From assembly GCA_963663995.1 (NCBI GenBank), contig OY760660.1:1740001-1772000 (forward strand): 32,000 nt of DNA, read 5' to 3'. The position numbers were made by a program, and so were the translations under genes. This document shows, piece by piece, positions 2,884 to 31,719 of this stretch (position 1 is the stretch's first letter; every line of letters begins with the position of its first letter). Source of the stretch: Erysipelotrichaceae bacterium (lineage in GTDB: Bacteria > Bacillota_I > Bacilli_A > Erysipelotrichales > Erysipelotrichaceae). The notes below the pieces were generated by a model. It searched no databases, was not told where the DNA came from, and saw only the letters and a program-made list of their open reading frames with translations.

Positions 2884-3500
2884 CTCACATAAAACTTTGT
2901 GGATTATCAAGACATGAAGATATTGAAGTTGTGAATCAACTAAAACCTGATTATATAGGTTTTATCTTTGTTGAAAAAAGTAAACGCTATGTTAATCCAA
3001 TTTTTGCGAATGAACTTAAAAAGAAGCTTGATAAAGAGATCAAGGTTGTTGGTGTATTTGTCGATGAAGAACTAGAAATTGTAAATGACTTATTAACACT
3101 AGGGATTATTGATATTGCCCAACTTCATGGATCTGAGAGTAATGAATATATTGAGAACTTAAAAGAGATAAGTAAAAAACCTGTCATAAAAGCTTTCAGT
3201 ATTGTTACACAAGATGATTTATTGGAGGCTAAGCAATCAAACGCTGACTTTATTTTACTTGATTCAAAAAGTGGCGGTAGTGGAACACAATTTGATTGGA
3301 GCTTATTAAAAGATTTTAAAAAAGATTACTTTTTAGCCGGTGGCTTAGATCATAAAAATGTTTATGAAGCTGTTAAGAAAATAAATCCATTTGCGGTTGA
3401 TGTCAGTTCAGGCATTGAAACAAATGGTCTAAAAGATAAAGACAAAATGAAAGAATTTGTCGAAAATGTTAGAAAAGCAATTAAGGAGGAAAATGGATGA
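2880..3500 (+). CDS. trpF: Phosphoribosylanthranilate isomerase
   Basis: The N-terminus is IKLCGL, and QLHG and VDVSSGIE motifs are present. ATGA overlaps occur on both sides. Position in the operon fits. Confidence 0.85.
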
Positions 3501-4687
3501 GAAATCAAAATAGTCTCTTTGGTATACATGGTGGTCAATATATTCCAGAAACTTTAATGAATGCGGTTATTGAACTTGAAAAAGCTTATAATCATTTTAA
3601 AAATGATCCAGAGTTTAATGCTGAACTTCATGAACTTTTTAATGAATATGCTGGTCGACCTTCTCGTTTATATTATGCGAAAAAAATGACTGAGGATTTA
3701 GGTGGCGCAAAAATCTATCTTAAACGTGAAGATTTAAATCATACAGGAGCCCATAAAATTAATAATGTATTAGGGCAAGCGCTTCTTGCGAAAAAAATGG
3801 GTAAAACTCGTTTAATTGCTGAAACGGGAGCTGGTCAACATGGGGTTGCGACAGCAACGGCAGCCGCTTTAATGGGAATGGAATGTGTTGTTTTCATGGG
3901 TGAAGAAGATACGATAAGACAAGCTTTGAATGTTTATCGTATGCGATTACTTGGGGCAACCGTTATTCCTGTTACGAGTGGAACGGCTACTTTAAAAGAT
4001 GCTGTTTCTGAAGCCATGCGTGAGTGGACAAGTCGAATTGATGATACTCATTATTGTTTGGGTTCTGTTATGGGTCCACATCCATTTCCTACTATTGTTC
4101 GTGACTTTCAAGCAGTTATTTCCAAGGAAATTAAAGAACAGATATTAGAAAAAGAAGGACGATTACCTGACAGTGTTATTGCCTGTGTTGGCGGTGGCTC
4201 AAATGCGATTGGTGCCTTCTATCACTTCATCGATGATAAAGAAGTTGAATTGATTGGAACTGAAGCAGCTGGTCGTGGTATTGATACATTAGAAACAGCT
4301 GCGACGATTAATGTCGGTAGACTAGGTATTTTTCATGGGATGAAGTCATATTTCTGCCAAGATAAATATGGACAAATAGCACCAGTTTATTCTATTTCAG
4401 CTGGCTTAGATTACCCAGGAATTGGTCCTGAACATGCCCATTTACATGATATTGGTCGAGCTAAATATGTTCCGATTACAGACGAAGAATCGGTCGTCGC
4501 GTTTGAATATCTTTCCAAAACAGAAGGTATAATTCCTGCGATTGAATCAGCCCACGCAGTAGCTTATGCTTTGAAAATCGCTCCAACGATGGATAAAGAT
4601 AAAATTATAGTCATCAATTTATCGGGTCGCGGTGATAAGGATTGTGCTGCGATCGCACGATATAGAGGAGAAGATCTTCATGAGTAA
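3497..4687 (+). CDS. trpB: Tryptophan synthase beta chain
   Basis: The PLP-lysine motif HTGAHKINN and GGGSNAIG are present. Length is 396 aa. Confidence 0.95.
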
Positions 4688-5450
4688 AATAAAGAACGCT
4701 TTTAAAAATGGAAAAGCTTTTATTACCTTCATTACCGTAGGAGATCCAGATTTAGAAACATCTAAAAAAGCAATTCTTGAAATGGTTGAAAATGGAGCAG
4801 ATTTAATTGAATTAGGTATTCCATTCTCTGATCCAATGGCGGAGGGACCGACCATTCAATCTGCTAATGTTAGAGCACTTAAAAATGGAATCACAACGGA
4901 TGATATTTTCGAGTTTGTTAGAGATATCAAAAAAGAAGTAAGTATACCTATGGTTTTTATGACCTATTCAAATGTTGTTTTCTCATACGGTTCAGATAAG
5001 TTTATAAGCACATGTAAGGAAATTGGGATAGATGGTTTAATCTTGCCGGATTGTCCATATGAAGAAAAAGAAGAGTTTTCAGACTTGTGTCATAAATATG
5101 ATGTAGATCTCATTTCTTTAGTTGCCCCAACTTCTGAAAATCGGATTGCGATGATTGCAAAAGAAGCTGAAGGGTTTGTTTACTTAGTATCTAGTTTAGG
5201 AGTTACCGGTACACGCTCTGAAATCAAGACTGATTTAGCTGCGATTGCCAAAGTTGTACGTGAAAACACAGATACACCTTGTGCAATTGGTTTTGGAATA
5301 TCAACACCAGAACAAGCACAAAAAATGGCAGCCATATCTGATGGTGCCATAGTTGGTTCAGCAATTATCAAATTATTAGAGAAATATGGACAAGATGCGC
5401 CAAAGCATATTGGTGAGTATGTTAAATCAATGAAAGATGCATTGAGATAA
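4680..5450 (+). CDS. trpA: Tryptophan synthase alpha chain
   Basis: Motifs [22 protein letters not shown] and GFGIS are present. I moved the start from the GTG at 4632 in the ORF track to the ATG at 4680. That ATG has the RBS GAGGAG (4665-4670) 9 nt upstream and overlaps the trpB stop by 8 nt. Confidence 0.9.
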
Positions 5451-5454
5451 AAAA

Positions 5455-5474
5455 AGTGGGATTTTAATCCCACT
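5455..5474 (-). terminator. Rho-independent terminator of the minus-strand pepT/DUF438 pair, lying between convergent genes
   Basis: Inverted repeat AGTGGGATT / AATCCCACT. On the minus strand it is followed by a T7 run (complement of 5449-5455). On the plus strand the same hairpin follows the trpA stop but has no U-tract. The hairpin overlaps the last codons of the minus-strand gene. Confidence 0.7.
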
Positions 5475-6612
5475 CTAAGAGTCGTCTTTCACCTTGAAGA
5501 GCACGAATATCTTCAACTAATTGGGTCACTTCTAAACAACCTTTATATTCATGACGTTCATTACGTAATGCGATATATTTGATGTATACGAAGTGGCCTT
5601 TCATTTGAATCCAGAACTGAGCTTGATCTTTTTCGCCTGATCGCAAAGCTTCAATGATTTTATTAACAACATCGACACTTGAGGATGGGTGACAATTACG
5701 CACATCTCTTCCAATAACTGCAGGTGATCTTGGGAAAACGCGATCTACAGCTTTATTGAAGTAGCGTACTTTATTGTCTTCATCTATTAGAGTGATATCT
5801 AAGGGCAGAGCATTTAGTAAAAGTTCGAGTTGTTCAAAGTTAAGTTCGCCAGTATCTGTTTTAATATAACCGCCTAAATCTATGAAAGGTTTTGTCTCAA
5901 CTTTTGGTTGTTTAGGTTTATCAATAAAGATAAAAGGATATTCAAAGATTTGTTGAGTTAAGTCATCAAGTGTTTCTTTACTGAGATACTGTAGAGATGC
6001 TTGAAGTAAGAAGCGATTTTCTTTTTGAATGAGTCCAAAAGCTTTAAAGAAATATGAACCTAAGGCAAAAGAGAAAAGTTTGAAATCAAAGGGTTTTGTA
6101 TTAAGCGCATTGATAGATGCTTTTAAAGCATTTCGACATGCATCTTGCATTGTCCATAAAATCTTGAGTCCTTCAAAATGGCTATTTACTTTTTCTAATG
6201 AAGGGAACAGTAAGTTTTGTGTTTTAGTGTAATGCACAGAAAACATCTCAAGTTGCTTTAATTCTTTTTTCAAATAGTCAATATCCAATGTTTTTGAAGC
6301 ATTCACTTTAAAATAATCTTGGAGTAAATTGAGTTTTTCTGTTAAGGCTTTGTTTTCTAAGTCTAGATAATGGAGGATGCCATCACTGGGTAAATCTAAT
6401 TCTTTACCTCTGAGATGTTGATCGATTGCATGAACAAATGGATCTACAAAGTTTATTACTGATTCGACTGTTTCGCCTTCTTTTAAAAGTGAGTTAAATG
6501 TTTCAAATACATCAATAATTTGAATATTCTTTAATTGATTTTCTATTTTCTTGTAGTCACTTAATGTAGATTTTTTCTCCTTTATTAAAAGGATATAGTC
6601 TTTGATATTCAT
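5464..6612 (-). CDS. DUF438 / PAS-domain protein with a hemerythrin-like N-terminal region (putative O2/NO/redox sensor; function unknown)
   Basis: The C-terminal block ITLIDEDNKVRYFN...RVFPRSPAVIGRDVRNCHP...FWIQMKGHFVYIKYIALRN...YKGCLEVTQLVEDIRALQGERRLLEW matches my recollection of the conserved DUF438+PAS_10 core. The N-terminal half has the hemerythrin-like segment HYTKTQNLLFPSLEK. The start overlaps the pepT stop (ATGA). Confidence 0.7.
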   Translation of the reverse strand: MNIKDYILLIKEKKSTLSDYKKIENQLKNIQIIDVFETFNSLLKEGETVESVINFVDPFVHAIDQHLRGKELDLPSDGILHYLDLENKALTEKLNLLQDYFKVNASKTLDIDYLKKELKQLEMFSVHYTKTQNLLFPSLEKVNSHFEGLKILWTMQDACRNALKASINALNTKPFDFKLFSFALGSYFFKAFGLIQKENRFLLQASLQYLSKETLDDLTQQIFEYPFIFIDKPKQPKVETKPFIDLGGYIKTDTGELNFEQLELLLNALPLDITLIDEDNKVRYFNKAVDRVFPRSPAVIGRDVRNCHPSSSVDVVNKIIEALRSGEKDQAQFWIQMKGHFVYIKYIALRNERHEYKGCLEVTQLVEDIRALQGERRLLEWD

Positions 6613-7832
6613 AGTTCTTCTGCGTTTATCTTAACGATCTCTAAGATAACTTGAACGGCTTTCTGCATCACATCTAAACTTGCGTATTCATAAGGCCCAT
6701 GATAGTTATCACCACCTGTAAATATATTTGGTGTTGGGATTCCCATAAAAGAAATCTTTGAACCATCTGTCCCACCGCGGATTGGTTGAACAGTTGATTT
6801 TATGTTTAAGTTTTCCATAGCTTTTAAAGCTAAGTTGACTGATTTCATGTCTTTTTCTATGACTTCAGCCATGTTGTAGTACTGATCATTCATTTCTATT
6901 TTGAAACGTTCAGCTTTATATTTCTTATTAAGAAAAGCAACATTGTCTAATAGAGTTTGTTTACGATCTAAGAATTTTTCTTTATCGTGATCACGAATAA
7001 TATAAGTCATTGATCCTGTATCGATTTTGGTTTGCAGTTCCATTAGGAAATAATAACCTTCATAGTTGTCAGTATGCTCAGGTACTTCAGATTGTGGAAG
7101 TAAAGCATCAAATTCCATTGCGAGTTTTGCGGTATTAACCATTGTATCTTTAGCACTGCCTGGATGAACAGATACACCTGCCAGTGTGATTTTAGCGACT
7201 GCCGCATTAAAACTTTCATATTCTAATTCACCTAAGACAGATCCATCCATAGTATAAGCGAATTTCGCTCTGAAGTTTTTCGCATCAAAGTGGTTAGCCC
7301 CTTGACCAATCTCTTCATCTGGACCAAAGGCAACACGTATTTCGCCATGTTTGAGATCGGGATTATTGATTAATGTAATCATTGCTTCGATGATTTCAAC
7401 TAAACCAGCTTTATCATCCGCACCAAGTAATGTTGTCCCATCCGTCACAACCAATGTATGACCTTTTAAAGCTAATAAACGTGGGAAATCGCTGGTACTC
7501 ATCAATAAATCTTGATTCAATTGAATATCTTTTCCATCGTAGTTTTCAATGATTCTTGGACTGATATTTTCAGCATTAAAATCAGCTGTATCATAGTGAG
7601 CAATAAAACCGATTATGTCAGGTGTATGGTCTGTATTGTTTGGGATGGTTGCGCTGACATAGCCATTACTTTCATTGTATTCGACTTCGCTGAACCCTAA
7701 ATCCTCTAATTCATTCGCTAACATTTTAGCGAATACAACTTGCGTTTGGGTGGAAGGAATAGTATCTGATTCCTCACTTGATCGTGTATTGATTTTTGCA
7801 TAACGAATAAATCGCTCTAATAAAGTTTCCAT
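6609..7832 (-). CDS. pepT: Peptidase T (tripeptide aminopeptidase, M20B family)
   Basis: METLLERFIRYAKINTRS is a typical PepT N-terminus. M20 metal and catalytic motifs HYDTADF, GADDKAG, GPDEEIG and GGTDGS are present. I chose the start at Met8 of the track ORF (ATG at 7832) because the RBS GAGGT lies 9 nt upstream. Confidence 0.85.
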   Translation of the reverse strand: METLLERFIRYAKINTRSSEESDTIPSTQTQVVFAKMLANELEDLGFSEVEYNESNGYVSATIPNNTDHTPDIIGFIAHYDTADFNAENISPRIIENYDGKDIQLNQDLLMSTSDFPRLLALKGHTLVVTDGTTLLGADDKAGLVEIIEAMITLINNPDLKHGEIRVAFGPDEEIGQGANHFDAKNFRAKFAYTMDGSVLGELEYESFNAAVAKITLAGVSVHPGSAKDTMVNTAKLAMEFDALLPQSEVPEHTDNYEGYYFLMELQTKIDTGSMTYIIRDHDKEKFLDRKQTLLDNVAFLNKKYKAERFKIEMNDQYYNMAEVIEKDMKSVNLALKAMENLNIKSTVQPIRGGTDGSKISFMGIPTPNIFTGGDNYHGPYEYASLDVMQKAVQVILEIVKINAEEL

Positions 7833-7883
7833 AAAAAAATTACCTCGTATCATTATTCTAACGCAATTTTACCTAAAGGTCAT

Positions 7884-7913
7884 GTGACTTAATTGTACAT
7901 AAAGTTGTACAAT
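7884..7913 (+). promoter_or_regulatory. Putative sigma-A-type promoter for the WYL / DprA-like pair
   Basis: -35 GTGACT (7884-7889), an 18-nt spacer, then -10 TACAAT (7908-7913). It is followed by the RBS GAGGAA (7923-7928) and the ATG at 7935. This is a sequence-pattern call only. Confidence 0.4.
7893..7911. repeat. Two TTGTACA boxes (7893-7899 and 7905-7911), each containing the palindrome TGTACA, spaced 12 bp apart
   Basis: Direct reading of the pepT / WYL divergent intergenic region. The second box overlaps the proposed -10. This is a candidate operator. Confidence 0.5.
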
Positions 7914-7934
7914 AATTTTAATGAGGAAGTCAGT

Positions 7935-8912
7935 ATGAGTTCACAGAAATCCGTTAAAATTTTAGAGGTCATGCGTTTGCTTTTGAATAAGAGTGACGAT
8001 GAACATCCTTTAAGTGTACAAGACATTATTTTTGAACTCGAACAACTCGGTATTGAGAGTGAGCGTAAAAGTATCTATCAATACATGGATCAGTTGGAAG
8101 ATTATGGCTTAGATATTATTAAAACAAAGAAAATTGCGAACTACTATCATATAGGAGAGCGTGAATTTCAATTAGCGGAACTTAAACTTTTGGTCGATGC
8201 TGTACAATTTTCAAAGTTTATAACAAAAGAGAAAAGTGCTGAACTTATCGAAAAAATAAAGTCTTTAGCGTCTATTTATCAAGCACAACAATTAGTCCGT
8301 GATGACATGATTTCAGATCGCCTAAAAACAACGAACTCTTCTATCTATTTCAATGTGGATGCGATTCATGAAGCCATTGTGAATAAACGTTGGTTACAGT
8401 TTAAATATTTTGAATATGGTTTAGATAAAGAACGTCATTATCGCCATAATGGTGATTACTATACGTTGATTCCAGAATTCTTATGTTGGGATGATGAGAA
8501 ATATTACTGTGTCATGTATCATCAAACACATGATGATCATGTCATCTTTAGAGTCGATAAGATGCGAGAAGTCTCAGTCATGTATAAGAGTCATAAGCGT
8601 GAGCGGTCACAAGAAGATTTTGAAAAATACTGTACACGTATCTTTAGTATGTTTCAAGGTGAGGCAAAGTTAGTGCGCTTAGAATTTGATAAGTCTTTAG
8701 TATCAGTAGTCTTTGATCGTTTTGGACTTGATATTGAAATTAAAGAAGAAAAAGAAAAATCCTTTATAATTGAAGAAGAAGTTTTAGTATCACAAACATT
8801 TTTATCTTGGCTTTTTCAATTTGGCAATCAAGCTAAAATTCTTGGACCTCAAGAAGTTATTGATGAAGCCAGAGATTTAATTAGAAAGAATCTAGAGAAC
8901 TATGAATCCTAA
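7935..8912 (+). CDS. WYL-domain transcriptional regulator (wHTH - WYL - WCX architecture, YafY/PafBC-like)
   Basis: N-terminal wHTH (KILEVMRLLLNKSDDEHPLSVQDIIFELEQLGIESERKSIYQYMDQLEDYG). Central WYL-type segment (WLQFKYFEYG...YYTLIPEFLCWDDEKYYCVMYHQTHDDHVIFRVDKMREV). C-terminal WCX-like segment (FLSWLFQFGNQAKILGPQEVIDEARDLI). The start is set at ATG 7935, which has an RBS, rather than the TTG at 7893 in the track. Confidence 0.8.
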   Translation: MSSQKSVKILEVMRLLLNKSDDEHPLSVQDIIFELEQLGIESERKSIYQYMDQLEDYGLDIIKTKKIANYYHIGEREFQLAELKLLVDAVQFSKFITKEKSAELIEKIKSLASIYQAQQLVRDDMISDRLKTTNSSIYFNVDAIHEAIVNKRWLQFKYFEYGLDKERHYRHNGDYYTLIPEFLCWDDEKYYCVMYHQTHDDHVIFRVDKMREVSVMYKSHKRERSQEDFEKYCTRIFSMFQGEAKLVRLEFDKSLVSVVFDRFGLDIEIKEEKEKSFIIEEEVLVSQTFLSWLFQFGNQAKILGPQEVIDEARDLIRKNLENYES

Positions 8913-9783
8913 ACAAAACAGACAATTAGCGATTCAGTATCATATCCTTAGACGTTTAATTCAAGATGATGTAAAACTTCATTCTAAGATTAATAAGGAT
9001 AATATTGCTGAACTTGTTGATGCGAAAAAGTTTTATGATAAATACTTTGAACCGCAACACAATGTGTCGCAACTTCCTATGCTTTTTAAACTTGTTCAAC
9101 GAGAAACTGAAGCTGCTTTTAAACGTATTTCAAATAAAGTACATATTATTCATAAATTTGATGAGCGTTATCCGAAATCAATCCTTCAGGATTTTAGAGA
9201 TGAAGCACCCATGTTTATTTATTTAAGTGGAGGCGTTGATGTTTTAGAGCGTAAGTATAAAAAGATTTCTATTTTTAGTAGTTCAAAGAGTACAGATGAA
9301 TATATCAATCAATCTTTAGAATGTGTAAGGCAATTAAAAGGATCGGAGTATGTCATCTTAATTCAATTTAATACATTGATGGATAACCTTATCTTTTTAG
9401 AATGTCAAAAACAAGGGATACCTTGCATTGTAGTTTTTAGAGGTCCAGTTACAAAGGATTTAGAAAATGCGATAAAGAAATATAATCCAAGATTTAAACG
9501 TGGATCAAAAGGGATGAATATCATGAGTATTACCGGTCCTTTTAATGAAGTTTTAAGCGAAAAAACACAGTCGTATTTAATGAACTCTCTTGGTCGAGTC
9601 AGTATTTTATTGTCAGAATTAGTTAACGATGTAAATCATGAAGCTATTAGAAATAATTTACATTGGCGAAAACCTTCACTCATGCCACTTTTAAATGGCT
9701 ATGAATATCCATCATCAGATTTGTTATTTACACTCGAAAATAAGGAAGATTTCAAGAAAACTATTGACCATTTATGTGCATAA
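8902..9783 (+). CDS. Divergent DprA/Smf-like (SLOG/Rossmann-fold) protein with degenerate canonical motifs
   Basis: At 293 aa it is typical DprA size. FDERYPKSILQDFRDEAPMFIYLSGG followed by KKISIFSSSKS resembles the DprA hallmark YPxxLxxIxDPPxxLYxxG ... VAIVGSRxxS. The downstream motifs GLAxGID, RNRIIxGL and SGSLxTA are replaced. This alignment was made by hand from memory. The ATG overlaps the last 11 nt of the WYL gene. Confidence 0.5.
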   Translation: MNPKQNRQLAIQYHILRRLIQDDVKLHSKINKDNIAELVDAKKFYDKYFEPQHNVSQLPMLFKLVQRETEAAFKRISNKVHIIHKFDERYPKSILQDFRDEAPMFIYLSGGVDVLERKYKKISIFSSSKSTDEYINQSLECVRQLKGSEYVILIQFNTLMDNLIFLECQKQGIPCIVVFRGPVTKDLENAIKKYNPRFKRGSKGMNIMSITGPFNEVLSEKTQSYLMNSLGRVSILLSELVNDVNHEAIRNNLHWRKPSLMPLLNGYEYPSSDLLFTLENKEDFKKTIDHLCA

Positions 9784-9837
9784 TTTACTTTGTGAAAAAC
9801 AGCTAATTTATCATTTGTTAAATTTTTCGCAAAATAG

Positions 9838-9866
9838 TTGAAAGTCAATGGGGACAGGTCTATACT
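9838..9866 (+). promoter_or_regulatory. Sigma-A-type promoter of the CoADR fusion gene
   Basis: -35 TTGAAA (9838-9843), an exact 17-nt spacer, then -10 TATACT (9861-9866), about 35 nt upstream of the RBS AAAGGA. Confidence 0.6.
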
Positions 9867-9902
9867 TTATAGGTGTGTTAATAAAAACAAGAAAGGATGC
9901 AT

Positions 9903-12439: not shown

Positions 12440-12467
12440 ATGACATATTTATGACACATTCATGGGT
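12440..12467 (+). repeat. Phased direct repeats ATGACAtATT / ATGACAcATT / ATGGGT with an 11-bp period, upstream of the response-regulator gene
   Basis: Repeat units start at 12440, 12451 and 12462. The third unit supplies the ATG that the ORF track used as a start. This is a candidate OmpR-family binding array. Confidence 0.5.
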
Positions 12468-12497
12468 TACACTACTGCATATAAAGGACGGGTGTAT

Positions 12498-13172
12498 ATG
12501 ATCGGACTACTTTGTGATGATGAATCAATTGTAAAAGAAACCTTATCAATGTATCTTTCTCAAGAAGAATTTGAGAGTGATTTTGCATCGGATGGTGAAG
12601 AGGCTTTGTATAAATTTAGAGAAAAAGACTATGATTTTATAGTTTTAGATTTAATGATGCCTAAAATTAATGGACTAGACGTCTGCAAAGAAATCCGTAA
12701 AACTTCCCAGGTTCCTGTATTGATGTTGACAGCTCGTGGTGAAGAAATTGATCGCATATTAGGATTTGAACTAGGGGCTGATGATTATATCGTTAAACCA
12801 TTCTCATCTCGAGAAGTAGTGGCTCGAATTAAAGCTATTCTTAGAAGAAGTAAAAACCAAAGCTTGGAAGATAAAGTTATTAAACAAGATAAACTGACTA
12901 TTAATCTTGCGACCTATACAGTTAGTTATGATGGAAAGAGTTGTGATATGACTCCTAAGGAAGTTGAAATATTACACTTACTTGCATCTCATCCGCAACA
13001 AGTCTTTTCACGTGAACAACTCTTAAACAATGTATGGGGTTATACCTATTATGGTGATACAAGATCAGTAGATACACATATCAAAAGAATTCGATCTAAA
13101 ATGCCTGAACATTTAAAAGATATTATTCGTACTGTATATGGAGTAGGTTATAAATTTGAGGCGATTAAATGA
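12498..13172 (+). CDS. OmpR/PhoB-family two-component response regulator
   Basis: Receiver motifs LCDDE, IVLDLMMP (phospho-Asp), MLTA and VKPF, followed by a winged-helix output domain (VDTHIKRIRSK...GVGYKF). The start is set at ATG 12498, with the RBS AAAGGA 9 nt upstream. Confidence 0.85.
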   Translation: MIGLLCDDESIVKETLSMYLSQEEFESDFASDGEEALYKFREKDYDFIVLDLMMPKINGLDVCKEIRKTSQVPVLMLTARGEEIDRILGFELGADDYIVKPFSSREVVARIKAILRRSKNQSLEDKVIKQDKLTINLATYTVSYDGKSCDMTPKEVEILHLLASHPQQVFSREQLLNNVWGYTYYGDTRSVDTHIKRIRSKMPEHLKDIIRTVYGVGYKFEAIK

Positions 13173-14974
13173 AAGTAAGAAAATCATTGTTTTCAAGGAT
13201 TTTAAAAATCTTTATTTTATTGTCGCTAGGGACATTAATTTTAACGATGACTATCAATACTTTCGTATCGCGAGTTTATTTTAAGAATCTTAAGGTTAGA
13301 GAAGTTCAACCCACACTATCAGCTATTGAAAGTTTAGTCATCGATGTTGAAAACGGAGTACTTGATAGTTCATTTCTTGAACGATTTGTTTTTGCGCAAA
13401 CATTAGATAAAAATACACAAATTATTATTTCTGATGAGAAAGGTAATTTGATTTTCTCATCCAGAGGCATTAAAGATAATCGTAATGAACCAAACGATCA
13501 AGTAAGTCCAAGCATGCCTGAAAATCCTGATGGTTTTTTTGACTTCTCAAATTCAGATATATTAGATGAAGTATTACTAGATAAAGATGTTTTTGTGAAA
13601 GTGCTAAAGTTTGATGGATCAGAGTTTGAATCAATGGTTATAGGTCAAACGATTGTTGATAGTGATGGGAATCTTATTGGAGCAGTTGCGGCAATTGTAC
13701 CGATCTATGAACTAGATGAAGCGGTGTACACACTTATGATTTCACTAGCAATATCGACTTCAGCAGTTATGTTGTTCAGTGTCTTTGTTCTATATCTGTT
13801 TTCAAAGAGACTCACGAAACCGATTATAAATATGGTAGAAGTAGCTAACCAAATGAGTTTAGGATCTTTCGACAAGAAAGCGGATGAAGATGACCCAAGT
13901 GAAATTGGGGCATTAGGACAGTCGTTGAACAGGATGTCTGAATCATTGAAGTTAACGCTAGACGAAATACAATCTGAGAGATCAAAACTGGAATTAATGC
14001 TGACAAGTATGAATGAGGGTGTCATCTCATTTGATATGGATGATCATATTTTACTTACAAATCCAGCAGTGCATCGATTACTGGAAGTAGATACAATTCA
14101 AGATTTAGAGAATATTCTAAGCCAAGCATTTATTCAAGAAGCTTTAGTTTTAGCGAAAAAAGGTGAAGTGAACATAAGTGAATTAAATGTTAAAGAAAAT
14201 ACGATAGGTTTATCCGTATCACCAATCTATACGAATGAAAACGAAGTAAGCGGTGTTGTCGCAGTTTTTATTGATCAATCAGAAGCTAAACGCATTGAAA
14301 AGATGCAAAGAGATTATGTGGCAAATGTCTCACATGAACTCAGAACTCCAATAACTGCAATGAGAGCATTTATTGAACCTCTTAATGATAATTTAATAAA
14401 AGATGATCAAAAGAAACATGAATACTATAATAATATTCTTAAGGAAATCGAAAGATTAAATCGATTAATTAATGATTTACTAGAACTCTCACGTCTTCAA
14501 AATACTGATGTAGCCTTTAAAGAGAGCAAGTTTAATCTAAAACATCTCATTACTGATTTAAGTGAGAGATATCAATTTTTAGCTAAAGAGAAGAAGATTG
14601 ACTTCAATATAAAAATTGACTTAAAACAGGAAGAACTTTTAAGTAATGAAGATCGGGTTGAACAAGTTTTAACAATCCTTCTAGATAATGCATTTAAGTA
14701 CACTGAAAAAGGATCAGTTGATATGCATGTGTTTAATCAGAAAAATCAAATCTTTATTGAACTTAAAGATAGTGGCGTAGGTATCGCTCACAAAGATCTA
14801 CCATTTATTTTTGAACGTTTCTATACTGTTGATAAGGCACGAACAATGAAATCATTTGGTTTAGGTCTATCGATCGCAAAAGAAATCACAGATCATTTAA
14901 ACGCAAGTATTAGCGTTGAATCCCAGTTAAATGAAGGATCAACCTTTACCCTAAAATTCAATAAAGCATCCTAG
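13169..14974 (+). CDS. Sensor histidine kinase (two TM segments flanking an extracytoplasmic domain of about 150 aa, then HAMP, PAS, HisKA and HATPase_c)
   Basis: H-box [12 protein letters not shown]-box [10 protein letters not shown]-boxes DSGVGI and GLGLSIAKE. Hydrophobic segments lie near residues 12-34 and 188-212. There is an ATGA overlap with the response-regulator gene. Confidence 0.85.
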
Positions 14975-30067: not shown

Positions 30068-30685
30068 ATGAATTTTAAGCATATAAAAATATTAAAAAAG
30101 CTAATGGGTAAAACTGGAGATTTTCAATCCTTTTTTAAAGAACTCATTGAGCTAGAACAAAAACAAGCTCAGATAAAGAAACAGCTTTCGATGTTTAATA
30201 GACCTTCTAAAATAAAGAAAAAGGAAGACGGATTATCACCGATTAATTTTGTATTAGAGAATAATGGATTATCAAAATTAAGGAATAATGAAATTAAGGA
30301 ACAACTAGATTTATTAGTTGATAAATTTATTGAAAATGATCAGTATTATGATCAAAATCGAGATCGTATTTTAGCGGCGTTTAATTCAATTGTTAATGAA
30401 ATTAAAACGAGTTTTTTTATGACTGAAGAAACACGTGAATTACTTCAATATAAATTTAATAAGATTAGTGAAGAGTATACAAAAATGAGAGACATCTGTT
30501 TATTTAATATGGCAGTCTTTTCAGCATTTATTTACTTCTATGAGAGTAAAGAAGTCATGATTTCCGAAATAAAAAATTACTTAGATAAAACAGATCTTAC
30601 GTATAAACTTGTCCCAAGTTACGAAAACACCTATAAATACGAATATGAATATGAGAAGTTTGGCTTCTTTTTTACACAAAAATAA
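30068..30685 (+). CDS. Hypothetical protein (coiled-coil-like N-terminal half, one hydrophobic segment ICLFNMAVFSAFIYFY); no family recognised
   Basis: A 205-aa ORF with lysine-rich AT-biased composition and a weak RBS. It is followed 10 nt later by the DsrE-like gene. The start is uncertain (alternative Met13). Confidence 0.45.
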   Translation: MNFKHIKILKKLMGKTGDFQSFFKELIELEQKQAQIKKQLSMFNRPSKIKKKEDGLSPINFVLENNGLSKLRNNEIKEQLDLLVDKFIENDQYYDQNRDRILAAFNSIVNEIKTSFFMTEETRELLQYKFNKISEEYTKMRDICLFNMAVFSAFIYFYESKEVMISEIKNYLDKTDLTYKLVPSYENTYKYEYEYEKFGFFFTQK

Positions 30686-30695
30686 GTGAGGATTT

Positions 30696-31037
30696 ATGTC
30701 GAAAATTAAAGTAATATTCCATATAGACGAAATGTCTAAATGGCCATTGGTGCTTGCGAATACTCGTAATTTAATCAATGAAATGCAAGATGTCTTAAGT
30801 GAAGTTGAAGTATTAGCTAATTCTGAAGCTGTTTTATTTTTTAAGAATGATAATAGTGATTTAAAAGAACAAGTTTTGGCTTTATCTAATAAAGTTAAGT
30901 TTTGTGTATGCAGAAACTCAATGAAATCACTAAAAATTGAAGCAAAAGAAATTGATGACTATATCTCAATTGTAAGTTCAGGTGTAGCTTATCTTGCTTA
31001 TCAACAAAATGATGGTTTTGCTTATATCAAACCTTGA
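30696..31037 (+). CDS. Small DsrE/DsrF-like family protein (COG1416-type)
   Basis: 113 aa. The pattern KVIFHIDE..KWPLVLANTRNLI....EVEVLANSEAV....VKFCVCRNS....VSSGVAYLAYQQNDGFAYIKP matches my recollection of the COG1416 DsrE-like consensus, including the conserved Cys and the C-terminal GxAYI(K/R)P. RBS TGAGGA. Confidence 0.65.
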   Translation: MSKIKVIFHIDEMSKWPLVLANTRNLINEMQDVLSEVEVLANSEAVLFFKNDNSDLKEQVLALSNKVKFCVCRNSMKSLKIEAKEIDDYISIVSSGVAYLAYQQNDGFAYIKP

Positions 31038-31110
31038 TTAGCACTAAAGTCTAATTGTTTGTATAGGTTTATGATGTTAACTTTAAGATAATAAAATTGA
31101 GGAGATCACA

Positions 31111-31719
31111 ATGAAAAAATTCACAAAGATTTTTTTGATCAGTTTATTATTTATAACAATTCTTGGTGCTTGTACAAGTGCTAAACCTGAAGATACTGTA
31201 ACTGAATTTTTAGATACGATTAAAAATACAGATGATGGATTGTTTGATGAGTCGTTGAAAGATTATTGGGTAAGTGATAGTTCAAACATGGATACTGTTG
31301 AAGAACTAAATTCTGATGATGATGCATATACAGAACTCTATCTACAATATATGCAAGATTTTGACTATACAATTTTAGATAGTACTGTTACTGATGATTT
31401 AGCTGTGGTAAGTGTTGAGTTTACGACTTACCCAATTGCTGAAATGTTTATGGCATGGATGATGCAAATGTTTACTAATTTATTTGATCCTACAATAAGT
31501 GGTTTAAGTGAAGAAGAACTCAATCAAAAATACATAGAGTGGTTTAATGAAGTTGCGCAAAACTATAGTAAAAATCGAGTGAGTACAGCTGATATCCATT
31601 TAATAAAAATTGAAGGTGACTGGAAGTTCTCTGCAGATGATGAAAATATCGATTTTGTTGATGCATTATTTGGAGGATTACTCTCAGGATTCGATGGAGA
31701 TCTTATCGAAGAATCATAG
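31111..31719 (+). CDS. Putative lipoprotein, acidic (function unknown)
   Basis: Signal peptide plus lipobox MKKFTKIFLISLLFITILGAC. RBS GAGGAG. Length 202 aa. Confidence 0.7.
   Translation: MKKFTKIFLISLLFITILGACTSAKPEDTVTEFLDTIKNTDDGLFDESLKDYWVSDSSNMDTVEELNSDDDAYTELYLQYMQDFDYTILDSTVTDDLAVVSVEFTTYPIAEMFMAWMMQMFTNLFDPTISGLSEEELNQKYIEWFNEVAQNYSKNRVSTADIHLIKIEGDWKFSADDENIDFVDALFGGLLSGFDGDLIEES

Follow-up and report, generated by a model that had tools for sequence, protein, structure and literature searches.

A two-gene operon of a WYL regulator and a diverged DprA-like protein is conserved in the core chromosome of an uncultured Erysipelotrichaceae lineage

The DNA analysed here is a 32,000-nt stretch from an uncultured Erysipelotrichaceae bacterium (assembly GCA_963663995.1, contig OY760660.1, positions 1,740,001 to 1,772,000), hereafter referred to as the window. 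It carries a gene for a 325-aa transcription regulator composed of a winged helix-turn-helix (wHTH), a WYL and a WCX domain, followed on the same strand by a gene for a 293-aa DprA-like protein (Table 1). An earlier note, made from the sequence alone, had described the two open reading frames (ORFs) as overlapping by 11 nt at the ATG at 8902, and both ORFs and the overlap are present as claimed. The note had further read the pair as a DNA- or nucleotide-sensing module in which a degenerate DprA-fold protein is placed under WYL control; its observation is confirmed by the present analysis and its interpretation is partly supported.

Conservation of the pair was examined by tblastn of the window proteins against 17 related loci, and one more locus was reached via the regulator. 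All 18 loci come from metagenome-assembled genomes of Erysipelotrichaceae or Erysipelotrichales, and complete chromosomes with the pair include OY781039.1, OW818653.1, OW818635.1 and CAZGLV010000001.1. In 18/18 of these loci the genes are arranged in the order WYL regulator, DprA-like gene and a gene for a fusion of CoA-disulfide reductase (CoADR), rhodanese, TusA and DsrE domains, and the pair is never separated, so the pairing goes far beyond chance. Identity to the window proteins ranges from 85% down to 27% for the DprA-like protein (27-31% in a deep sister clade), from 85% down to 45% for the WYL regulator and from 93% down to 64% for the CoADR fusion. The DprA-like family is tiny, with 15 clusters in 5.8 billion proteins; among 1.84 billion representatives, 7 clusters (50% identity) scored below 1e-10, and ordinary DprA-family proteins followed from 1e-7 to 1e-4. 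A scan with one genome per GTDB species returned 14 loci, all of them in metagenome-assembled genomes labelled Erysipelotrichaceae, Erysipelotrichales or Bacillota, and viral contigs contained no relative of the DprA-like protein. In full-text searches of the literature, no publication turned up in which WYL and DprA or SLOG proteins are connected as a gene pair, in agreement with the view that no such system had been described. These results confirm that the WYL and DprA-like genes form a conserved operon of two genes, seated in the core chromosome of a single uncultured Erysipelotrichaceae lineage, a pairing previously undescribed.

The junction of the two genes differs among clades. The two genes share 11 nt in the window, compared with 8 nt in a middle clade (L006-L012); in the deep clade (L013-L016) they do not overlap but lie 16 nt apart, and the second has a separate Shine-Dalgarno sequence (SD; AAGGAG) and a GTG start. 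The start/stop overlap in the window is consistent with translational coupling of the two genes.

The identity of the regulator is well supported. Both the WYL domain (PF13280, 31.9 bits against a cut-off of 21.8) and the WCX domain (PF25583, 30.2 bits against 23.9) exceed their Pfam thresholds, PADLOC returned a WYL match at 4.8e-22, and Pfam HTH_11 gave only 13 bits. In an AlphaFold2 (AF2) model built from 41 relatives, with a mean predicted local distance difference test (pLDDT) score of 83, residues 3-73 form the three helices and beta-hairpin of a winged HTH. Foldseek matched the model over its full length to DriD (1.5e-12) and PafBC (2.9e-12), and to BrxR and CapW at about 1e-6 each; the WYL-WCX part also showed a weak sequence match to DriD. 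The arginine of the FRxD motif, R206, is invariant, and the ratio of nonsynonymous to synonymous substitution rates (dN/dS) is 0.06, a rough value since dS is saturated. The regulator belongs to a very large family, with more than 6300 relatives at E <1e-20, that some sources name the YafY family or WYL domain protein.

The second protein was modelled by AF2 on an alignment of 15 database relatives (pLDDT 87; predicted template modelling score, pTM, 0.86), and the model consists of five N-terminal helices followed by an alpha/beta domain. Foldseek against the PDB placed ShosA at the top (8zva, 8.6e-12), followed by S. pneumoniae DprA (3uqz, 1.7e-10), R. palustris DprA (1e-8) and H. pylori DprA (about 1e-6), and LOG and molybdenum cofactor (MoCo)-carrier SLOG structures stood far lower in the list (1e-4 to 1e-2). 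This ranking confirms, at the level of the predicted structure, the DprA fold that had been proposed for the 293-aa protein, namely a SAM-like helical domain joined to a DprA-type Rossmann domain. A search of a viral structure library gave no match at E <=0.001.

Sequence profiles placed the protein in the same family at a greater distance. The window copy reached 21.4 bits with Pfam DNA_processg_A, over its N-terminal half only, and thus missed the cut-off of 29.6 bits. Because the deep-clade orthologues pass this cut-off with 50-76 bits, homology to DprA is secure despite the failure of the window copy. In addition, a profile built from 7 DprA-family proteins, the nearest outside relatives of the family, scored the window protein at 56 bits. 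A search of PDB sequences with a profile of the window clade alone found no match; a family profile that included the deep clade reached ShosA (7.8e-7) and DprA too. The NCBIfam dprA equivalog TIGR00732, with a cut-off of 191 bits, failed both for the window copy (15.3 bits) and for the deep clade (38-61 bits), which fits the proposal that this is not a housekeeping dprA. Members of the deep clade are annotated as DprA by NCBI and JGI. PADLOC gave weak ShosA and PsyrA matches for the window protein, which were rejected as proof of membership: the same models give ordinary DprA-like proteins 116-218 bits and therefore do not discriminate.

We then aligned the window protein with ShosA and DprA-family proteins by MAFFT. 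The N-terminal stretch FDExYPxxLxxxxxAPxxLYxxG is retained, and four canonical motifs are replaced: VGSR/VGTR by FSSSK, SGLAxGID by IQFNTLMD, RRNRI by QSYLM and SGTSHTV by DVNHEAI. The motif replacements reported from a hand alignment are thus upheld for this copy, but they are specific to a part of the family. The deep-clade orthologues (L013-L017, 298 aa) retain IVGSRS, SGFDxxLD (SGxD) and EGGSAH, and these motifs are replaced in the middle and window clades. Since the deeper orthologues keep the motifs and pass Pfam, the DprA-like gene has diverged progressively while already paired with the WYL gene; on these alignments, the degeneracy is a derived state inside a lineage in which the pairing pre-existed. 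The glycine-rich ligand loops (GGGxGxMG / PGGxGTxxE, or GxAxGID / SGS in DprA) are gone in the window clade, where IQFNTLMD and NDVNHEA are found, and a nucleotide-sensing SLOG role, which the note had entertained, finds no support. Three arginines of H. pylori DprA, R52, R143 and R170, bind single-stranded DNA (ssDNA) and correspond to R139, R234 and R261 of ShosA (PMC12961424). In the same alignment, the first position is Ser in the window and Arg only in the deep clade, as the arginine of GSR; the second is Gln in the window and Ile in the deep clade and is thus lost from both; the third is Arg in the window but K, I, Q or S among close relatives.

The divergence is unevenly distributed along the protein. 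When the window protein is compared with the deep clade, identity is 36-49% over the N-terminal helical domain and the first strands and about 20% over the remaining Rossmann domain. The window subclade gained a basic loop, FKRGxKG (FKRGSKG in the window), and its proteins are basic (pI 9.1-9.6). The DprA-like gene has a dN/dS of 0.06-0.09, no different from that of pepT, the regulator and CoADR, although these values are rough owing to saturated dS; the gene is therefore functional and under purifying selection. A pseudogene or decaying remnant was considered and rejected on the basis of this ratio, the conserved length and the presence of lineage-specific invariant residues.

A sigma-70-type promoter is predicted directly ahead of the WYL gene. 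Its TACAAT box with flanks (GTTGTACAATAA) is the best-conserved upstream element over 15 related loci and is present in all clades, and the counterpart in L013, TTGAGA-17-TACAAT, agrees with the consensus at 10/12 positions. The spacer and -10 box of the window promoter are covered by a perfect inverted repeat, a candidate WYL operator, which occurs in exactly one copy in the window and not upstream of CoADR. Inverted repeats overlapping the -10 box were found in three clades; those of other clades differ in sequence and have their right arm over the -10 box (TGTACTCT-N18-AGAGTACA in L013 and TTTATTGT-N20-ACAATAAA in L003). Because the left arm is not conserved in the 85%-identical relative and other clades carry different repeats, the operator stays a candidate, and the perfect palindrome was rejected as a conserved operator, being absent from close relatives. 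Rfam identified no RNA element in or near the operon.

At its 3' end, the module is likely bounded by a predicted promoter of the CoADR gene, which is conserved in L001, L002 and L005. No terminator-like site was found between the DprA-like gene and CoADR in the window (9783-9897). In the deep clade a strong terminator directly follows the DprA-like stop, which makes the pair a closed bicistronic unit there. As a separate observation on the 5' side, the WYL ATG in the middle clade (L003 about 7016-7033; L006, L009 and L010-L012) lies 6-7 nt past TACAAT and has no SD, which suggests that these WYL mRNAs are leaderless; the WYL gene of the window, L001, L002 and L007/L008 has a leader with an SD.

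Table 1. Coordinates of the operon, its predicted control sites and the downstream genes in the window.
Feature	Position	Strand	Basis and details
Predicted sigma-70-type operon promoter	7884-7913	+	-35 GTGACT 7884-7889, 18-nt spacer, -10 TACAAT 7908-7913; consensus scan 9/12
Candidate WYL operator, inverted repeat ATTGTACA-N6-TGTACAAT	7892-7913	.	8+8 nt, 100% complementary; covers spacer and -10 box
SD GAGGAAG of the WYL gene	7923-7929	+	Read from sequence; 5 nt before ATG 7935; N-terminus aligns with all orthologues
ORF1, wHTH-WYL-WCX regulator, 325 aa, YafY family	7935-8912	+	Pfam, PADLOC, AF2, Foldseek
Regulator, wHTH (approximate)	7935-8159	+	
Regulator, helical linker (approximate)	8160-8354	+	
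Regulator, WYL domain (approximate)	8355-8576	+	
Regulator, WCX domain (approximate)	8673-8888	+	
Overlap of WYL stop (TAA 8910-8912) and DprA-like start (ATG 8902-8904), 11 nt, ATGAATCCTAA	8902-8912	+	From sequence
ORF2, DprA-family protein, diverged, 293 aa	8902-9783	+	AF2, Foldseek, profiles
DprA-like protein, five-helix SAM-like N-domain	8902-9126	+	Residues 1-75
DprA-like protein, Rossmann-type DprA domain	9127-9780	+	
Predicted promoter of CoADR-rhodanese-TusA-DsrE gene	9838-9866	+	TTGAAA-17-TATACT; consensus scan 10/12; conserved in L001, L002, L005
CoADR-rhodanese-TusA-DsrE fusion, 834 aa	9897-12401		820-840 aa across loci; behind the pair in every locus
Response-regulator/histidine-kinase pair	12462-14974		Just downstream of CoADR

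The surroundings of the pair in the window comprise the trp operon, a PAS_10 protein, pepT, a two-component system, msrB, thiolase, SDR, hydrolase and FabH-like genes, a branched-chain amino-acid-type ABC transporter, acetyl-CoA hydrolase, TetR, Maf, tRNA-Thr and a family 1 glycosidase. Neither defence nor mobile-element genes occur in the 32-kb window, its composition shows no anomaly, and the context is a syntenic metabolic core in all loci. A location in a defence island, which the note had raised for the pair, was thus rejected, since the flanks are trp, pepT, CoADR, two-component, msrB, lipid and amino-acid transport, maf and glycosidase genes. The flank upstream of the pair varies among relatives. 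Only about 80 nt separate pepT from the WYL gene in the window (7854-7934), and at this place L001 has an HTH_3 gene of 412 aa with three small ORFs (4116-6848), L002 a trio of Pyr_redox, polyprenyl synthase and UbiA genes (3070-6877) and L003 a DUF6198 gene (6326-6973), so that the gap looks like a small hot spot of gene turnover. Elsewhere in the window, at 30068-31719, two ORFs of 205 aa and 202 aa with no Pfam match flank a 113-aa DsrE-like gene in the region of lowest GC content (26-30%).

Outside the lineage, the nearest relatives of the regulator are 47-48% identical and lie in defence islands ahead of cargo genes. A Tepidibacter relative is preceded by type I restriction-modification (R-M) genes and followed by GmrSD, a second relative stands in the same way between type I R-M genes and a pPIWI-RE module, and others precede a Cas3/DpdF/PsyrT-like helicase and a type I methyltransferase. 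In 81 loci from metagenomes or viruses whose regulators are 36-47% identical, what lies downstream is highly diverse, and 0/81 include a DprA-like ORF. The DprA-like cargo is therefore specific to this lineage, and the pairing was rejected as a general trait of this WYL subfamily.

Gut-metagenome regulators at 40-44% identity recurrently precede the same uncharacterised proteins. An ORF of 338 or 333 aa starts 14 nt past the WYL stop in L083, L085, L087, L092 and L097 (the 338-aa form without a PADLOC match); a 271-aa SWIM-like ORF with weak PADLOC matches only follows the WYL gene in L063, L067, L074, L076 and L091; a 191-aa Cys-rich ORF does so in L043, L048 and L053; and a 323-aa ORF whose motifs resemble those of ADP-ribosylglycohydrolases is found in L049, L064 and L071. 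These ORFs may represent undescribed WYL-controlled cargo.

The two proteins were compared with known systems. The regulator resembles CapW and BrxR in its wHTH-WYL-WCX architecture, in its position as the first gene of an operon and in an inverted repeat over its own promoter, here a candidate; moreover, its nearest outside sequence relatives head GmrSD, pPIWI-RE, helicase and type I R-M cargo. It differs from them in length (325 aa versus about 285-295 aa, with a longer linker), in a Foldseek match weaker than those to DriD and PafBC, in the absence of the RWHVR arginines and in its cargo, a single DprA-like gene at a core, syntenic locus instead of a defence island. DriD from Caulobacter and PafBC from mycobacteria, which are ssDNA-activated activators of the DNA-damage response, are its best full-length structural matches and similar in length, and by analogy an ssDNA sensor that controls a DNA-metabolism gene would be a shared logic. 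However, they are only 13-18% identical to the window regulator, and they control regulons from sites upstream of the core promoter, whereas the only candidate site here overlaps the -10 box and spacer. In DriD, PafBC and CapW alike, the WYL domain is the part that binds ssDNA (PMC10853764, PMC11804915, PMC11662680), and CapW uses this domain for ssDNA sensing (PMC11662680).

ShosA, a DprA-like protein that binds ssDNA and RecA (PMC12961424, PMC11961720), and the DprA-like partner of PsyrTA are the closest counterparts of the second protein. ShosA is its best match in both structure and sequence, has the same SAM-like N-domain and Rossmann domain (PMC11961720) and is likewise encoded by the second gene of a tightly coupled pair. 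In contrast to these systems, the partner here is a transcription regulator and not a phosphoribosyltransferase (PRTase) or RecQ-like toxin, the identity to ShosA is only 17%, R139, R234 and R261 of ShosA are not conserved, and the context is a chromosomal core. Neither the window nor the flanks of L001-L003 and L101, as annotated with Pfam, showed an adjacent PRTase (ShosT) or RecQ-like (PsyrT) toxin, and the location in defence islands or mobile elements with a patchy distribution that is a trait of ShosTA and PsyrTA was not observed, plasmids and phages giving weak matches only. The closest annotated plasmid and phage relatives of the deep-clade protein are DprA genes with a toxin-type partner, and neither has a WYL neighbour: on an E. 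coli IncF plasmid (NZ_OX030731.1; L102, 35814-44290), a RecQ-family helicase and DprA (PsyrTA-like) separate the S gene of a type I R-M operon from its R gene, and in a Geobacillus phage a DprA gene is paired with an amidophosphoribosyltransferase (ShosTA-like). With canonical DprA/Smf, the window protein shares the fold, the length and the N-terminal FDExYPxxL stretch, and its deep-clade orthologues pass Pfam; it differs in falling far under the TIGR00732 cut-off, in the replacement of GSR, GxAxGID, RNRI and SGS in the window clade and in its coupling to a WYL regulator, which is not known for canonical dprA.

On balance we lean, tentatively and with considerable doubt, towards an ssDNA-responsive, self-regulated two-gene operon that probably stems from a defence-type module, is now fixed in the chromosome and has a repurposed DprA-family protein as its output. 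A homodimer of the regulator would bind the inverted repeat over its own -10 box and keep the operon low. By analogy with DriD, PafBC and CapW, ssDNA arising from DNA damage or from replicating foreign DNA would bind the WYL domain and change the hold of the regulator on the promoter, and transcription would rise, with the start/stop overlap keeping the output of the two proteins at a constant ratio. The ancestral form of that protein would have worked on ssDNA and RecA as DprA and ShosA do. In the window subclade, in which the arginines and glycine loops were lost and the N-terminal domain and first strands were conserved, it more likely acts via protein contacts, with RecA or with the regulator, or through the new basic surface, than by binding ssDNA. 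With the same reservation, we propose that this output helps to deal with damaged or foreign DNA in processes linked to ssDNA and RecA. As to its origin, a WYL regulator such as those found ahead of variable defence cargo may have acquired a DprA-like cargo in an Erysipelotrichaceae ancestor; the pair would then have been fixed in the chromosome and inherited vertically, and the cargo of the window branch, though still strongly constrained, would have lost its canonical ssDNA-binding features. The module thus probably descends from a defence-type unit of a WYL regulator plus cargo and is now a vertically inherited chromosomal pair.

Several findings weigh against this reading. The ssDNA-contacting arginines that flank the WYL motif in CapW (RWHVR) are not present in the window regulator, which has KYYCV. 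In structure the regulator comes nearer to DriD and PafBC, both activators, than to BrxR and CapW, both repressors, so that regulation may run in either direction. The perfect palindrome is not kept in L001 or L002, its left arm is not conserved in the 85%-identical relative, and the operator sequence is not conserved between clades. The window protein is without two of the three ssDNA-binding arginines of DprA and ShosA, and the third is not conserved; because this triad is not kept, an ssDNA or RecA role of the window copy is weakly grounded. Finally, the metabolic genomic context gives no functional hint.

Other explanations would connect the same genes to different functions. The pair could be an active module against phages or mobile DNA, in which a BrxR/CapW-like WYL repressor governs a ShosA/PsyrA-like effector or orphan antitoxin that opposes a toxin or phage activity whose gene lies elsewhere, or that hinders incoming ssDNA. 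The defence cargo behind the closest WYL relatives, the rank of ShosA in structure and sequence searches together with the PADLOC ShosA and PsyrA matches, the PsyrTA- or ShosTA-like pairs formed by the closest plasmid and phage homologues, and a Rossmann domain that evolves much faster than the neighbouring genes all point this way. We nevertheless consider it rather unlikely, as no PRTase or RecQ-like helicase lies within about 8 kb at any locus, viral contigs gave no matches, dN/dS is as low as in the housekeeping neighbours, and the fixed syntenic position with vertical inheritance across the lineage differs from the patchy spread typical of defence genes. A functional link of the pair to the downstream CoA-disulfide/persulfide reductase fusion, for handling of sulfur or CoA-persulfide stress, appears highly improbable. 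The fusion gene follows the pair in 18/18 loci though the upstream flank varies, and no terminator separates them in the window. The deep clade has a 99-aa Cys-containing ArsR-family (HTH_5) gene with a palindromic promoter region before CoADR (L013 7219-7518; L017 4440-4739), and the window clade is without this regulator, so control of CoADR must differ there, a point that would suit such a link. On the other side, the deep clade terminates transcription strongly after the DprA-like gene and provides CoADR with its own ArsR-family regulator and promoter, two extra ORFs and the ArsR-type gene (about 2.4-2.5 kb) intervene in L017, CoADR has a conserved promoter of its own in the window, and the operator-like repeat of the WYL gene was not found upstream of it. 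We therefore read the adjacency as inherited synteny rather than as a shared operon.

The two remaining alternatives concern the DprA-like protein itself. It could have turned into a co-regulator for the WYL factor, either as feedback partner or as anti-activator, that binds via its conserved SAM-like N-domain, so that the two jointly control a wider DNA-damage regulon; a model for this is S. pneumoniae DprA, which, as reported by Mirouze et al. in 2013, is said to bind ComE~P and thereby shut off competence. Translational coupling implies a fixed stoichiometry of the two proteins, the pairing is strict (18/18 loci), the N-terminal domain and first strands are best conserved while ssDNA-binding residues are lost, and DriD and PafBC, the closest structural matches of the regulator, are global activators. 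Against this stand the single operator-like site in the 32-kb window and the deep clade, which has no overlap, retains DprA-like motifs and thereby suggests an original effector role; we regard the co-regulator as unlikely. Very unlikely, in our estimate, is that the gene is simply the very divergent dprA of this lineage, serving natural transformation or recombination under a WYL regulator. The NCBI and JGI annotations of the deep clade would agree with it, as would a length and SAM-plus-Rossmann architecture that fit Firmicute DprA and the reported presence of comEC and dprA in the core genome of Erysipelothrix rhusiopathiae (PMC4906694). Three results argue otherwise: TIGR00732, with its cut-off of 191 bits, gives the window copy 15 bits and the deep clade 38-61 bits, the arginine triad for ssDNA binding is not kept, and an exhaustive profile search places ordinary DprA proteins at E 1e-7 or worse.

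The ssDNA-responsive operon that we tentatively favour bears on two families at once, as WYL regulators increasingly appear to be general sensors of ssDNA, and DprA-like proteins to be RecA-linked parts of defence systems. A bolder version of it, which we hold to be unlikely, is that a DprA-fold protein without ssDNA binding has become the obligate partner of an ssDNA-sensing WYL factor and that the two form a joint sensor and feedback switch for an undescribed response to DNA damage or foreign DNA in Erysipelotrichaceae. If true, it would be an example of a defence-type unit of WYL plus cargo domesticated into core genome regulation. As only metagenomes have so far yielded this lineage, tests would have to rely on heterologous expression. 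A toxin-free core operon that joins both families, at graded stages of motif loss, provides a natural series on what becomes of the DprA fold after ssDNA binding ends, and the operon is a candidate for a LexA-independent response to DNA damage or foreign DNA in a poorly studied Firmicute family.

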